Source: Chthoniobacteraceae bacterium (GTDB lineage: Bacteria > Verrucomicrobiota > Verrucomicrobiia > Chthoniobacterales > Chthoniobacteraceae). From it: a stretch of 46,196 nucleotides of DNA. The stretch is from contig JANNWY010000096.1 of the NCBI GenBank assembly GCA_031409335.1, forward strand, positions 1-46,196. The letters run 5' to 3'. Positions 32,026 through 46,196 of this stretch are shown here, one piece after another. The notes below the pieces were generated by a model. That model had not been told where the DNA came from and made no database searches. It was given only the letters and a program-made list of their open reading frames with translations. The first letter of the stretch is position 1. Each line of letters begins with the position of its first letter. The position numbers were made by a program, and so were the translations under genes.

Positions 32026-33417
32026 ATGAACACTGACAATTCCTGCGGTGACATCACGCCGCTGTTCACGCGGCGCGATATTCTGAAAACGTTTTCGTGC
32101 GGCTTCGGCTGGCTCGCGTTCGCGGGGCTGGCGCAGCGGCCCGCATTCGGCGCGCTGGAGCATCCGCTCGCGCCGAAGATCACCCATTTCGCGCCACGGG
32201 CGAAGCGTGTGATTTTCCTGACGATGCGTGGCGCGCCGTCGCATGTGGACACGTTCGACTACAAGCCGCAGCTCAACGCGGACGATGGAAAACCGGGTAA
32301 GCGGCCCGGCACGAAGCTGCTCGGATCGAAGTGGAAATTCACGCAGAGCGGGAAAAGCGGCCTCTATATTTCGGAGCTGTTTCCGAATGTCGCGAAACAC
32401 GCGGACGAGATGTGTCTGGTGCGCTCGATGCAGACGGATTTGCCGAGCCATCCGCAGGCATTTTTGAAACTGCACACGGGCAACTCCCAATTCGTCCGCC
32501 CCTCGCTCGGCGCGTGGGCGCTTTACGGGCTCGGCACTTCAAACGAAAACCTGCCGGGCTTCATCACGCTCACGCCGCCGGGCGGATTTGGCGGGGCGCA
32601 AAACTATGGGAGCGCGTTTTTGCCGGCGATCTATCAGGCGACGAAAATCGGCTCCGACAATCGCCCGATCGCGAATGCGGAGGTGCGCAATCTCGAATCG
32701 AAACTCGCGCCGAACGCGCAGCGGAACGAACTCGAACTCATCCAGGCGCTGAACCGCCAAAAGCTCGCGCGGGATCGCGTGAATCCGGAGGTCGAAGGCG
32801 TGATCGAGAGCTACGAGCTGGCTTTCAAAATGCAGAGCCAGGTGCCGAACGTGATGGATTTTTCCAAGGAATCGGCCGCCACGAAAAAGCTCTACGGCAT
32901 CGGCGATACGGCGACGGATGACTTCGGGCGGAAGTGTTTGCTCGCGCGGCGCTTCGTGGAATCCGGCGTGCGTTTCGTGGAGATTTCGCATGGCAACTGG
33001 GATCAGCATTTCAACCTCGCGACCGCGCTCGGAAACAACGCGCGCTCGGTCGATCTCCCGATCGCGGGCCTGCTCACCGATCTGCGTTCGCGCGGAATGC
33101 TGAAAGACACGCTCGTCGTGTGGGCGGGCGAATTTGGCCGGACGCCGCACGCGCAGGGCGGCGACGGGCGCGATCACAATAACAAAGCATTCACGATCTG
33201 GATGGCGGGCGGCGGCGCAAAAGGCGGACTGTCTTACGGCCAGACGGACGAATACGGCTACGAGGCGGTGGAGAACAAAGTGCAGATTCACGATCTGCAC
33301 GCGACGATCCTCGCCATGCTCGGCCTCGATCACGAGAAGCTGACGTTCCGCTACGCAGGCCGCGATTTCCGGCTCACGGATGTGGCGGGAAATGTGGTGA
33401 AAGAAATCCTGGCGTGA
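32026..33417 (+). CDS. DUF1501 family protein (Tat-exported, sulfatase-like)
   Basis: TRRDIL Tat motif, AKRVIFL, PSHVDTFDYKP, CLLARR, WDQH, GEFGRTP, GRDH, HDLHAT. Confidence 0.95.
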   Translation: MNTDNSCGDITPLFTRRDILKTFSCGFGWLAFAGLAQRPAFGALEHPLAPKITHFAPRAKRVIFLTMRGAPSHVDTFDYKPQLNADDGKPGKRPGTKLLGSKWKFTQSGKSGLYISELFPNVAKHADEMCLVRSMQTDLPSHPQAFLKLHTGNSQFVRPSLGAWALYGLGTSNENLPGFITLTPPGGFGGAQNYGSAFLPAIYQATKIGSDNRPIANAEVRNLESKLAPNAQRNELELIQALNRQKLARDRVNPEVEGVIESYELAFKMQSQVPNVMDFSKESAATKKLYGIGDTATDDFGRKCLLARRFVESGVRFVEISHGNWDQHFNLATALGNNARSVDLPIAGLLTDLRSRGMLKDTLVVWAGEFGRTPHAQGGDGRDHNNKAFTIWMAGGGAKGGLSYGQTDEYGYEAVENKVQIHDLHATILAMLGLDHEKLTFRYAGRDFRLTDVAGNVVKEILA

Positions 33418-34101: not shown

Positions 34102-36828
34102 ATGATGCCGCGCGTGACGCTCGAAACCGCCCTTTCCGAAATCGACTGGCTGCCGCCCCAGCGCGTGCGCCAGCTCGACCGATTTGGGCTGCGGACCGTC
34201 GGCGATTTGCTCACGCATTTTCCGAAAAGGCACGAGGATCGCACGCGGTTCGATCGCTTCCCGGACGGTGAAACGCCTGATCCGGTTTGCATTTGCGGGC
34301 TGGTGAAGAAGACGACGGTGAAGCGAATCCGCGGCTCCCAAAAGATGTTCGATGTGCTGCTGGAGGATGAAAATGCGCACGCGCTCAGCGCGCCGCTGGT
34401 GTGCCGGTGGTTCAACGCGCACTGGGTCGAGAAGGCGATCGTGAACGGCCAGCGCGTGGTCGTTTATGGCAAGCCAAAGCGCACCGGGTCGAACGTGGTG
34501 ATCGCGCATCCGGAGTTCGAGGTGGTCGAGGAAGGCGCGGAGGAAAGCGTGCATCTGAACCGACTCGCGCCGATCCACCGCGCGACCGAGGGGCTCTCGA
34601 CGCGCGTGTTGCGGCAGATCGTCTGGGATGTGCTGGAGCGGGTGCTCGACGATGACGTTGCCGATCTTCTGCCCGTGTCGCTCGACCCGAAGCCGCGCGT
34701 CTGGGCGCTGCGGCAGATTCATTTTCCCGCGAATGCCGAATCGCTGGCGAAAGCGCGACGGCATCTGGTGCTCACGGAGTTTTTCACGATGCAGATGTGC
34801 ATCTCGGCGAAGCGCGCCGAGCAGGCGGCGCAGCCCGGCGAAGTGCATTCCGGCAGCGGCGAGCTGATGCGACGCTTGCACGAAGCGCTGCCCTTCCCGC
34901 TCACCGGTGCGCAACAGCGCGTGATCGGTGAGATCGCTGCCGACCTCGCATCCCCGCGCGCGATGAACCGCCTGCTGCACGGCGACGTCGGCTCCGGCAA
35001 AACGCTGGTTGCGCTGAGTGCGATGCTGCTTTGCATCGAGTCCGGCCACCCCGCCGCGCTGATGGCCCCGACGCAGATTCTCGCCGAGCAGCACTATCTG
35101 AATTTCCGGCGGCTGCTGGAGCCGCTCGGCGTGCGCGTTGCCCTACGCACTGCGGCGCGGCGGGAGGAAAGCGGGACGCTGCCGCTATTTGCCGGCGCGA
35201 CCGGCGATCCGGGTAGCACGCTCGTCCCGAGCGTTGGCGAAGGCGTCCCGCCTTCGCGAACTTTGGAAACCACAGAATCTCAGGACGTTTCCCGTTACTC
35301 GAAACGCCTCCTCCCCATTTTCGAGAAACCTTGGGCGATCTACGCCGTCACCCTTTCCACCAAAAATCGCCGCACCCTCGCCGCCAAATCGCGCACCGCG
35401 ATCCTCGATGCACTCCGTCATTTCCACCGCGAACGATACGAACTTTTCGTCGCGTGCGTGATGCCGGATCACGTCCATTTCCTTTTCCAGCCGTGGGTCA
35501 AAGAAGCTGGCGAAAATGGCGAATCGGTCTTCTGGCCGCTCGTGGAAATTTTCCATTCGCTGAAGTCGTTCACCGCGCACGAAATCAACCGTCTCGAAAA
35601 AACGTCGGGGTCGGTTTGGGAGAATGAATCGTTTAACCGTTATGTGCGTTCGGACACGGATCTCGCGGAGAAATTTCACTACATCTGCCGCAACCCTTGG
35701 GACGCGGGGATCGTTTCCGCGACGGAGGACTATCCGTGGGTTTGGACGCCGGGTGACGAGGCGATCGGTGCGGGAAGTTCGTCTCCGCGGGACGCGAAGA
35801 CCAACGCGCGGGACGCGCGCGCTCCCCGGAGTTCCCCGTCCACATTTTCACCGGATTCGCCGCAAATCTTCATCGGCACCCACGCCCTCCTCTACGACGG
35901 CGCGGGCGTCGAAAATCTCGGCCTCGCCATCATCGATGAGCAGCACAAATTCGGCGTCATGCAGCGTGCGCGGCTGCGCGAAAAAGGGGCTGCGCCCGAT
36001 GTCCTCGTGATGACCGCCACGCCGATCCCGCGCACTTTGACGATGACGCTCTACGGCGATCTCGATGTCTCCACGCTGGATGAAATGCCGCGCAATCGTG
36101 GCAAAATCATCACCGCCGCGCGGGACCCGGCGAAGCTGCCAGACGCGGTGAAATTTCTCCGCGAGCAGCTCGACGCCGGGCGGCAGGGATATATCGTTTA
36201 TCCGCTCATCGACGAGTCGTTGAAACTGGAGGCAAAGGCGGCGGCGACCGAGTTTGCGAAATGGACGGAGCTGCTCGCGCCGCTGAAATGCGAGCTGCTG
36301 CACGGGCGCATTGCAGCGGATGAAAAGGAGGCGATCATGGAGCGCTTCCGGCGCGGCGAAACGAAGGCGCTCATCGCCACGACAGTGATCGAAGTCGGCA
36401 TCGACGTGCCGAACGCGAACATCATGCTCATCGAAAATGCCGAGCGATTCGGGCTCGCGCAGTTGCATCAATTGCGCGGGCGCATCGGGCGCGGCGAGCA
36501 CAAGAGTTACTGCGTGCTGCTCAGTTCCGCGGACGATCCCGATGCTTTGGAAAAGCTGCGCATTTTAGAGAAAACGTCGGACGGCTTCGAGATCGCCGAA
36601 GCCGATCTGCGCTTGCGCGGCCCCGGCGACATGCTCGGCACGGCGCAGAGCGGATTGGCGCCGCTCAAAATCGGCAATCTCCTCACCGACCAGGAACTGA
36701 TGACGCTCGCCCGCAACGCTGCCTTCCTCATCTTCGACCGCGACCCGAAGCTCGAAATGCCGGACCACTCCCGCTACCGCCCACTCATCGCCGAAACGAC
36801 CCACGCCGCCCACCTTTCGCAGTCGTGA
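34102..36828 (+). CDS. recG: ATP-dependent DNA helicase RecG carrying an in-frame insertion of about 200 aa with a Y1 transposase domain
   Basis: LPFPLTGAQ, MNRLLHGDVGSGKT, MAPTQILAEQH, IGTHAL, DEQH, MTATPIPRTL, FGLAQLHQLRGRIGRG, DGFEIAEADL..RGPG; start could be the GTG at 34114. Confidence 0.96.
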   Translation: MMPRVTLETALSEIDWLPPQRVRQLDRFGLRTVGDLLTHFPKRHEDRTRFDRFPDGETPDPVCICGLVKKTTVKRIRGSQKMFDVLLEDENAHALSAPLVCRWFNAHWVEKAIVNGQRVVVYGKPKRTGSNVVIAHPEFEVVEEGAEESVHLNRLAPIHRATEGLSTRVLRQIVWDVLERVLDDDVADLLPVSLDPKPRVWALRQIHFPANAESLAKARRHLVLTEFFTMQMCISAKRAEQAAQPGEVHSGSGELMRRLHEALPFPLTGAQQRVIGEIAADLASPRAMNRLLHGDVGSGKTLVALSAMLLCIESGHPAALMAPTQILAEQHYLNFRRLLEPLGVRVALRTAARREESGTLPLFAGATGDPGSTLVPSVGEGVPPSRTLETTESQDVSRYSKRLLPIFEKPWAIYAVTLSTKNRRTLAAKSRTAILDALRHFHRERYELFVACVMPDHVHFLFQPWVKEAGENGESVFWPLVEIFHSLKSFTAHEINRLEKTSGSVWENESFNRYVRSDTDLAEKFHYICRNPWDAGIVSATEDYPWVWTPGDEAIGAGSSSPRDAKTNARDARAPRSSPSTFSPDSPQIFIGTHALLYDGAGVENLGLAIIDEQHKFGVMQRARLREKGAAPDVLVMTATPIPRTLTMTLYGDLDVSTLDEMPRNRGKIITAARDPAKLPDAVKFLREQLDAGRQGYIVYPLIDESLKLEAKAAATEFAKWTELLAPLKCELLHGRIAADEKEAIMERFRRGETKALIATTVIEVGIDVPNANIMLIENAERFGLAQLHQLRGRIGRGEHKSYCVLLSSADDPDALEKLRILEKTSDGFEIAEADLRLRGPGDMLGTAQSGLAPLKIGNLLTDQELMTLARNAAFLIFDRDPKLEMPDHSRYRPLIAETTHAAHLSQS
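35208..35263 (+). repeat. REP (GTAG plus two hairpins), left end
   Basis: gtag-c-acgctcg-tcc-cgagcgt-tg-gcgaaggcg-tcc-cgccttcgc-gaactt. Confidence 0.88.
35775..35830 (-). repeat. REP (GGAG plus two hairpins), right end, inverted
   Basis: Reverse complement: ggag-c-gcgcgcg-tcc-cgcgcgt-tg-gtcttcgcg-tcc-cgcggagac-gaactt. Confidence 0.88.
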
Positions 36829-44953: not shown

Positions 44954-45367
44954 ATGAACAAGCACATCGTTCTCTACGACGACGAATGCCCGCTGTGTCA
45001 GTTTCAGATGAAAGTGCTGAGCTGGCTCGACTGGCGCGATGCGCTCGCGATCGTGCCGCTTTCCGATCCGCGGGCCAAGGCGGCGGCACCTTCGCTGACG
45101 CGCGAGGATTTGCTCGAGGCGATTCATTGCATCACCCCGGAAGGCCGCGCCTACCGGGGCGCGCGGGCGATTCGTTTCATGGGAATGCGGCTGCCGCTGC
45201 TCGTGCCAGTGGCGCTTTTTCTGTGGATTCCCGGCATCATCTTCTTCGCCGAAATCATCTACGCCTGGGTGAGTCGGAATCGCCTGCTGCTGAGCCGGGT
45301 CTTCGGCTGCAAGGGCGCGTGCGCGGTGATGCCGGCGCGGAAGCGCGAGCAGGACAAGCTGGCGTGA
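44954..45367 (+). CDS. DCC1-like thiol-disulfide oxidoreductase (DUF393)
   Basis: VLYDDECPLC (DxxCxxC), YAWVSRNR. Confidence 0.9.
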   Translation: MNKHIVLYDDECPLCQFQMKVLSWLDWRDALAIVPLSDPRAKAAAPSLTREDLLEAIHCITPEGRAYRGARAIRFMGMRLPLLVPVALFLWIPGIIFFAEIIYAWVSRNRLLLSRVFGCKGACAVMPARKREQDKLA

Positions 45368-45369
45368 GG

Positions 45370-46053
45370 ATGGCGGAGAACATCGAACCTCGAACCTCGA
45401 ACCTCGAACATCGAACGGAGTCGTTGCGCGCGGCTTTGGCGAAAGCGACGACGACTCTGCTGGCGGAAATGGGCGCGCATGGGCATTGGGAAGGTGAACT
45501 TTCCAGCAGTGCGCTTTCGACGGCGACGGCGGTGGTGGCGCTGGCGACGATGGATCGCGATCGGCATGGGGACTTGATTCGCGGCGGGTTGCGCTGGCTC
45601 GCGGAGCATCAGAACGCGGACGGCGGTTGGGGCGACACGGTGAAGAGCAAAAGCAACATCAGCACGACCGCGCTGTGCTGGGCCGCATTCGGCGCGGCTC
45701 GCGCGGATGCGGAATACGCGGACGTGGTGAAACGCGCGTCCGGCATTCTGGGGAACACGCTCGTCCCGAGCGTTGGTCGCGGCGTCCCGCCTCGACGGAC
45801 TTCCCTGCGGCATCGCCTCGTCGTCCAACGTCCAAACCCAAGGATAATCCTCGGCCGAATTCACGATCCCGGCATCCCACGGATTCCGACAGATGTAATG
45901 AAACTTCTCCGCAAGATCACGATCCGAGCGCACGTAACGATCAAACGATTCCTCCTCCCAGAACGGCACCGTCGTCTTTTAAATGCGGTTGATTTCGTGA
46001 GCGGTGAACGATTTCAACGAATGGAACAACTCGGACAGCGGCCAGAAGATTGA
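45370..46053 (+). pseudogene. Squalene-hopene cyclase / prenyltransferase-like gene, 5' part, interrupted from about 45747 by an antisense RAYT element
   Basis: GHWEGELSSSALSTATA, WLAEHQNADGGWGDT (QW repeat), SNISTT; the frame then enters the REP and stops at TGA 46051-46053. Confidence 0.75.
45378..45416. repeat. (GAACMTC)n heptamer microsatellite at the 5' end of the cyclase gene
   Basis: gaacatc gaacctc gaacctc gaacctc gaacatc gaac. Confidence 0.88.
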
Positions 46054-46196
46054 CTCGCCGTTGTCGCCGGACTCCTTCACCCACGGCTGGAACATAAAAT
46101 GGACGTGATCGGGCATGACACACGCGGCAAAAAGTTCGTATCGCTCGCGATGAAAATGGCGCAAGGCGTCCTTGATCGCGGTCCGTGACTTTGCCG
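45747..46196 (-). mobile_element. Second REP-flanked RAYT element (partial, runs off the window); transposase has an in-frame TAA
   Basis: 56-bp REP at 45747-45802; minus strand encodes VMPDHVH...KSFTAHEINRI*KTTVPFWEEESFDRYVR...YICRNP; TAA at 45979-45981 where the recG copy has GAA. Confidence 0.9.

Follow-up and report, generated by a model that had tools for sequence, protein, structure and literature searches.

An in-frame RAYT transposase cassette bounded by translated REPs in recG of a Chthoniobacteraceae bacterium, a likely mobile and unspliced passenger of housekeeping genes

Contig JANNWY010000096.1 of a Chthoniobacteraceae bacterium (assembly GCA_031409335.1; its whole length of 46,196 nucleotides was analysed and is here called the window) contains a recG gene with a transposase cassette in its reading frame. 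The cassette consists of one domain of the REP-associated tyrosine transposase type (RAYT) between two inverted repetitive extragenic palindromes (REPs), both of which are read as codons of the helicase gene. In related genomes, such cassettes were gained, lost and replaced at the same spot of recG and are present in other housekeeping genes, and therefore a lifestyle as mobile, unspliced passengers is likely. We favour the explanation that the REP–RAYT–REP unit is translated with RecG and stays part of the protein as an unspliced, tethered nuclease, which probably copies the REP doublets of the genome and probably moves or swaps itself among a few tolerant loops of housekeeping genes. It is put forward more tentatively that the element moves itself among housekeeping genes, using its translated hairpin ends for strand exchange, evicting the tenants of loops in RecG, AlaRS and ThrRS, and driving the turnover of REP doublets forming hairpins (REPINs).

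Anatomy of the recG cassette

The recG frame with its insert (34102..36828, forward strand) encodes 908 residues and was identified by RecG models and tblastn. It scores 769 bits on NF008168 (cut-off 718), and its wedge domain and superfamily 2 helicase motifs are intact. The NCBIfam models of RecG match the protein in two stretches, on either side of a match to REP_Tyr_transpos (NF047646) at residues 409–546. A preliminary description of this DNA reported about 200 extra residues in the RecG core, uninterrupted by a stop codon or frameshift; the open frame and the split model matches bear this out, and the insert amounts to about 210 residues. Alignment with RecG proteins of relatives places it in the loop preceding the IGTHAL motif, which is 242 residues long here versus 20–35 in 63 short alleles. 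In Thermotoga RecG, the position corresponds to residues 455–472, which separate the IGTHAL strand from the strand that follows motif Ia. All 23 full-length fused RecGs have unbroken helicase motifs I, Ia, II, III and VI. A tblastn search of the genome (326 contigs, 98% complete) returned one recG and no second copy; the next match is an Mfd-like frame of 1150 residues. The complete cassette, from CCGG to CCGG, is 621 nucleotides or 207 stop-free codons long, and we infer that its exact ends are at 35209 and 35829 (35209..35829, forward strand).

The RAYT domain, of the Y1 HUH (histidine–hydrophobic residue–histidine) type, comprises residues 409–546 (35326..35739, forward strand) and was delimited by NF047646, PF01797 and an AlphaFold model. 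Both motifs named in the preliminary description are in place. The HUH motif H457-V-H459 (35470..35478, forward strand) lies within MPDHVH and is invariant among 28 fused RecGs, and the predicted catalytic Tyr527 (35680..35682, forward strand) lies within YICRNP, which aligns weakly (E 0.56) with YIYINP of E. coli TnpA-REP (4ER8). The NF047646 match has an E-value of 8.5e-20 and 71–75 bits, relative to a model cut-off of 80 bits that some members of the clade exceed (80.2–88.5 bits). The match to PF01797 (Y1_Tnp), which the preliminary description had proposed as a check, was obtained with the insert alone at 23.4 bits, narrowly above the cut-off of 23. The fold was identified from hidden Markov models and motifs; a search of PDB sequences with the insert returned only 4ER8, at the same weak E-value. 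Identity as an IS200/IS605 transposase was rejected, as the insert scores 71 bits on the REP transposase model versus 19–23 on PF01797 and has only one other copy, 77% identical, in the genome; by comparison, PF01797 gives 71–93 bits for IS200-like genes at other loci of the genome.

The HUH motif is kept in all 75 clade members and the catalytic tyrosine in 74 (72 by pattern and two by eye). The domain evolves under purifying selection, with a ratio of nonsynonymous to synonymous substitution rates (dN/dS) of about 0.1. The values are 0.07–0.15 in 11 of 12 RecG-hosted pairs, the twelfth being saturated, and 0–0.24 across 11 pairs from other hosts; RecG itself gives 0.09–0.19 in the same 12 pairs. 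Judged by these sequences, RecG and its transposase partner both look functional. The higher synonymous divergence of the insert relative to RecG was not used as proof of turnover, because the lower GC content of its third codon positions (0.69 versus 0.81–0.82) confounds the comparison. In the AlphaFold model, calculated from 28 sequences, the Y1 domain is the best-predicted part, with block values of the predicted local distance difference test mostly 75–93. It is flanked by low-confidence, unstructured linkers (residues 351–407 and 553–582) that include the REP peptides.

The two REP arms form the longest inverted repeat between positions 33000 and 38000 (56 nucleotides, 75% complementary). 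The left arm (35208..35263, forward strand) has TCCGG, a GTAG foot and two hairpins with TCC loops, and is translated as PGSTLVPSVGEGVPPSRT. The right arm (35775..35830, reverse strand) is inverted, has a GGAG foot, and is translated as SSSPRDAKTNARDARAPR. Reading the arm pair in frame thus upholds the earlier statement that both flanking REPs are translated. The predicted DNA fold of the left arm has an energy of −19.2 kcal/mol (z −3.6), and that of the right arm −16.9 kcal/mol with a z of only −0.9.

The arms belong to a family dispersed through the genome. A two-arm profile search found 142 arms at 80 loci, with 62 inverted doublets of about 166 base pairs. Each arm of the family consists of TCCGG, a foot of the form G[T/G]AG and a pair of hairpins, and stem pairing is kept at positions in 102–113 of 113 anchored arms, with compensatory two-sided changes. 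Four of these anchored arms, counting the left arm itself, are identical to it over 55 nucleotides. The repeats are an ordinary extragenic REPIN family, because only one of 61 doublets scored by a hexamer test is in frame within a gene (eight loci at contig edges were not scored); for the same reason, the idea that REPINs of this family are frequent in-frame inserts in the genome was discarded. Among the 17 Y1 genes of the genome, the recG cassette and a broken copy at a contig end are alone in being directly flanked by this repeat family. By its domain, arms and repeat family, the cassette is a REPtron. The idea that the outer flank of each arm pairs with its inner flank in a guide-like manner was not supported, as the arms' own pairs give −8.6 and shuffled ones −8.8 kcal/mol.

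Recurrence, hosts and turnover of the cassettes

The fusion is confirmed as real and as recurrent in many independent genomes, and it is mainly this recurrence that argues against an artefact. RecG alleles were collected from 125 genomes: 118 out of the 143 in the family that gave a recG match, G089, and six of other families. The 126 alleles comprise 29 with the domain, 63 with a short loop, 30 with a middle-sized loop and four unclassed. Longer proteins that match the insert number 1098 in the protein database. RecG fusions account for 106 of the 120 matches listed and many matches bear the automatic JGI (Joint Genome Institute) label 'RecG-like helicase/REP element-mobilizing transposase RayT', so that the fusion is already visible in databases. 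The closest homologues are labelled Verrucomicrobiota, Chthoniobacterales. That the fusion arose from faulty joining of reads at REP repeats is hardly credible. No contig from public sequencing runs spans the whole locus, breaks fall within the REP arms, and in run X1 the piece on the right side of the cassette shows gaps relative to the window, as this explanation would have it. It is contradicted by the same in-frame fusion in 28 other alleles and in the listed database matches, by difference-free pieces of the left flank and of the insert at similar depths in runs X1 and X2 (11.3/13 and 6.4/9.5), which may be the source sample, and by X4, a diverged piece from another study, which bridges the left junction.

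A search of 151 family genomes returned 76 matches to the clade in 56 genomes; several matches are cut by contig ends, so that the host is seen from one side only. The hosts are RecG (30, one of them with frameshifts in RecG too), AlaRS (28), ThrRS (15), PriA (1) and an MmeI-like methyltransferase (1), and the remaining match is the contig-end copy. Each of the three main hosts is occupied at one loop. MetH also hosts the clade. Outside the family the clade is rare, with members in five of 400 sampled genomes of the phylum (three in AlaRS, one in RecG, and one in a host that was not resolved). The claim of the preliminary description that the element colonises conserved genes as an in-frame domain holds in that cassettes recur at fixed loops of several hosts; it has to be qualified, since the clade also has free-standing members. 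The proteins P0002, P0003 and P0008, which are MetH and AlaRS proteins, each carry two separate RAYT cassettes with different repeat types.

The transposase tree does not follow the host gene. It has 75 rows (74 of the 76 matches, without the recG match of G017 and the contig-end copy, plus G028) and requires seven changes among the three main hosts, where two would be the minimum, with the transposase lineages interleaved. Approximately unbiased tests reject a single ThrRS clade (p 3e-8) and a single RecG clade (p 0.003). The cassettes thus depart from the RAYT trait of being free-standing, non-jumping and congruent with the host, congruence having been tested against the identity of the host gene and the RecG tree.

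The preliminary description further suggested that RecG delivers the transposase to single-stranded DNA or replication forks. The data give no support to such RecG-specific delivery, since members of the clade sit in tRNA synthetases about as often as in RecG; moreover, hosts switch and most RecG alleles lack the cassette, and fork delivery is unlikely. It is very improbable that the domain is a domesticated accessory nuclease of RecG delivered in this way. Purifying selection on the domain, the presence of two fork helicases, RecG and PriA, among its hosts, and the predominance of RecG among the long database matches listed (obtained with a query that itself came from RecG) would fit such a role. 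However, 93 of the 126 alleles have a complete loop without the domain, its distribution is almost as scattered as that of shuffled labels, RecG-hosted domains do not form one clade, and AlaRS, ThrRS and MetH carry members of the same clade.

The recG locus exists in filled, scarred and empty states. On a FastTree phylogeny of 117 RecG alleles calculated without the insert, the presence of the cassette requires 20 changes, at least 14 of which are forced by well-supported branches; labels shuffled on the same tree require 23. In-frame REP scars are present in unfilled recG loops of G001, G080, G122, G128 and G129. In the genera g15, g9, g21 and g8, the loop has an extension of 15–20 residues (DxxxW... 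type) with no recognisable REP, and the loop is therefore permissive independently of the cassette. Genome G002 has a second, empty recG (L104, G002:C222) that groups with genus g44 rather than g1 and is probably due to contamination of the bin or to transfer.

Replacement of one cassette by another is seen in the sister species G102 and G103. Their recG flanks are about 99% identical, with 93–100% in 25 windows of 60 nucleotides. Divergence sets in precisely at the end of the left REP, and the two sequences come together again about 25 nucleotides beyond the right arm. The Y1 domains between these points are identical at only 80 of 151 positions (53%), and the REP types differ. The dispersed repeats follow the tenant: type B and type A repeats number 73 and 19 in G102, 54 and 18 in G084, 12 and 41 in G103, and 5 and 22 in G100, and in these four genomes tested the commoner type is that of the recG cassette. 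Exact type-A repeats are absent from 117 of the 151 family genomes, and 11 of the 19 genomes with at least ten of them have a type-A recG cassette. Since the genomes are related, this association is to be read as a pattern, not as the outcome of a statistical test.

These data can also be read without self-mobility. The embedded RAYT could be a non-jumping master of its REPINs, with cassettes moved only passively, when gene transfer is followed by homologous recombination of the host between REP arms or between recG flanks, which we regard as rather unlikely. The RAYTs in the literature occur as single copies and have been characterised as extragenic and non-jumping (bioRxiv 10.1101/2021.07.10.451892). 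The recG genes of G102 and G103 were recently homogenised, the left junctions have TCCGG microhomology in common, and some cassette clades keep to one host gene. On the other hand, recombination at recG flanks cannot carry a lineage among recG, alaS, thrS and the MmeI-like gene, and the breakpoints of G102 and G103 hug the REP ends, bring no donor flank, and enclose two different REP types.

Expression and proposed mechanism

The cassette is open in frame from end to end and likely unspliced. As the preliminary description had noted, it has no obvious ATG of its own: methionine codons are absent between the foot of the left REP and the start of the domain in all 65 cassettes, out of 75, in which both arms were located. 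An in-frame TTG at 35263 is not conserved, the nearest relatives having TTA (G003) and a phenylalanine codon (G002). The lack of an intein signature is likewise corroborated, with no Hint domain match to the insert in Pfam. Junctions consist of REP peptides that vary among alleles, and an intein was rejected on both grounds. A group I or II intron or an IStron was rejected because no ribozyme matched the Rfam covariance models, apart from one chance match at E 0.46. A fixed in-frame unit length common to all cassettes was also excluded, as foot-to-foot lengths across cassette types fall in all three frames.

The expression of the embedded transposase is presumably supplied by the host gene. 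Production of the transposase apart from RecG, by an internal start, proteolysis or RNA processing, with the fusion a coincidence of reading frame, is improbable. The TTG at 35263, the existence of free-standing relatives, and the predicted disordered linkers, which could be cut, would allow it; the methionine-free left segments, the lack of conservation of the TTG, the absence of a stop after the domain and of Hint or intron matches, and a frame maintained over both junctions in dozens of alleles all argue against it.

Free-standing relatives of about 200–290 residues gave 219 database matches. Among the 120 of these that were listed, 107 begin with methionine and have no host motif, by a pattern-based classification. 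The free-standing genes have their start a few codons ahead of the left arm and their stop a few codons beyond the right one, and both REPs are therefore translated in them too. These near-length matches rule out obligate embedding of the clade, and embedding is one of two lifestyles, because free-standing members exist. The unit is an open frame with its start and stop outside its ends, and would therefore be pre-adapted to in-frame insertion.

Based on these observations, a mechanism can be proposed. The cassette would borrow start and stop codons from its surroundings, either as a short free gene or within a host gene. The REP-encoded peptides would serve as flexible linkers, so that RecG could still fold. 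TnpA-REP of E. coli is monomeric, in contrast to the IS200 enzymes, which are dimers (PMC3479197), and the embedded domain may work as a monomer as well; a monomeric enzyme of this kind would suit insertion as a domain. E. coli TnpA-REP cleaves and recombines GTAG-footed single strands (PMC8266576). By analogy, the embedded enzyme would bind G[T/G]AG hairpins as single-stranded DNA, cut beside them and join the strands, and might thereby move its own cassette. The outcome would often be dispersed REPINs and rarely the exchange of a cassette, for which an old REP arm in a loop could be the landing pad. In host genes, only insertions and deletions that keep the frame would survive.

Self-mobility is deduced from trees and junctions, and several points weigh against it or against the reading as a whole. 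Host recombination could also move the cassette. Neither a fixed target sequence nor a target duplication was found, and Bertels and Rainey report no evidence of self-transposition of RAYTs in the preprint cited above (bioRxiv 10.1101/2021.07.10.451892). The gyrB (94.4%) and rpoB (92.7%) regions of G102 and G103 are less alike than their recG genes, and recG was therefore recently exchanged between the two genomes, or they were co-binned. Eight of the 19 genomes rich in exact type-A repeats have no recG cassette of that type (G099, with 48 repeats, and G162, with 20, are examples), and four carriers of a type-A cassette have fewer than ten such repeats. A free-standing RAYT on contig C214 is located about 150 nucleotides from a REPIN of the recG-cassette family, and is itself bracketed by its own repeat type. 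The domain in the window falls below the NF047646 cut-off, and the AlphaFold model of the whole protein is poor, with a predicted template modelling score of 0.33.

Relation to known systems and further RAYT loci

The cassette resembles published REPtrons (4ER8; PMC6006769; bioRxiv 10.1101/2021.07.10.451892) in combining an HUH motif with one tyrosine and inverted flanking G[T/G]AG hairpins, in its dispersed and mostly extragenic inverted doublets, and in purifying selection. It differs from them in that the unit has no start or stop inside it, both arms are translated and form 56-nucleotide double hairpins, it resides in housekeeping genes, its phylogeny departs from that of the host gene, and one cassette can take the place of another. 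In TnpA-REP subclass 2.4 (RAYT group 4; PMC6006769), REPs are also translated in frame within the transposase gene; there, REPs enter a transposase, whereas in recG a REP-bounded transposase enters a host gene. Two other RAYTs of the genome (C23:11677-12969 and C71:2289-3227) have their own REPs in frame between the HUH motif and the tyrosine and are similar to subclass 2.4. Unexpectedly long fused proteins were discarded by Quentin 2018 (PMC6006769). Intragenic REPs (PMC3733652) and Rickettsia palindromic elements are palindromes that, as here, occupy loops in frame in tRNA synthetases and repair genes, but they are non-coding repeats that add 20–80 residues, whereas in recG the insert is the transposase gene itself. 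Such in-frame palindromes were most abundant in the verrucomicrobe Opitutus terrae, where REPs were described in frame in genes, the transposase not being included (Di Nocera 2013, PMC3733652). In-frame repeats have been reviewed (PMC3184786).

Literature searches, which reached few subscription papers and no supplements, found no published description of an embedded RAYT, and a search for 'RayT' with 'RecG' returned one paper, in which RecG occurs only within the title of a reference. Embedded RAYTs are thus apparently undescribed in print and a new lifestyle of REPtrons. Inteins with homing endonucleases and IStrons are mobile nucleases found repeatedly at fixed sites of conserved genes and expressed by their hosts. 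The recG cassette differs from them in having no Hint domain and no intron, in occupying variable loops instead of catalytic motifs, and in its common loss by in-frame deletion; its insert would also remain in the mature protein. The comparison of the preliminary description with an intein-like lifestyle without splicing is supported in so far as the cassettes sit in conserved genes, recur at fixed loops, and lack a splicing signature.

RAYTs have been described as domesticated and non-jumping, and the mechanism by which REPINs are copied is still open. The recG locus contributes three things to this picture: the replacement of cassettes at a single site, repeat families that match whichever cassette is in place, and free-standing forms, which account for the pre-adaptation. 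G102 and G103, together with filled, scarred and empty recG alleles, provide natural before-and-after pairs with defined ends for tests of RAYT strand transfer. Bacteria would appear to tolerate a 200-residue unspliced nuclease in core enzymes, and the cassettes mark permissive loops in RecG, AlaRS, ThrRS and MetH. If correct, the proposed lifestyle would be a third route for selfish DNA into conserved genes, beside introns and inteins, and this would be the first RAYT lineage shown to jump.

The broken second copy of the cassette is at the end of the window (45730-46194, reverse strand; arm 45747-45802, forward strand). It is 77% identical to the recG insert, has an internal TAA, and is truncated where the contig ends. 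Directly adjoining it, and oppositely oriented, are roughly the first 130 codons of a gene starting near 45367 (forward strand) that, judging by its motifs, looks like a prenyltransferase or squalene cyclase; the copy may reflect a misjoin or an insertion that failed. The start of the same gene contains a short tandem heptamer-like repeat (45376-45418) that has up to 68 matches across the genome and represents another dispersed repeat family.

In-frame RAYT domains with other repeats occur elsewhere in the genome. One, with a different repeat type, is inside a frame on the forward strand at G000:C92:8516-12547, which is presumably a CarB-like carbamoyl-phosphate synthase large subunit. Another, flanked by its own multi-copy repeats, lies in a 1436-residue frame at G000:C107:15502-19812 (forward strand) that seems to us to resemble a sugar kinase joined to a nucleotidyltransferase. 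At G000:C190:3996-5417 (reverse strand), a RAYT domain is in one frame with a downstream segment, presumably of metallo-beta-lactamase-like fold, to which it is joined through a third repeat type.

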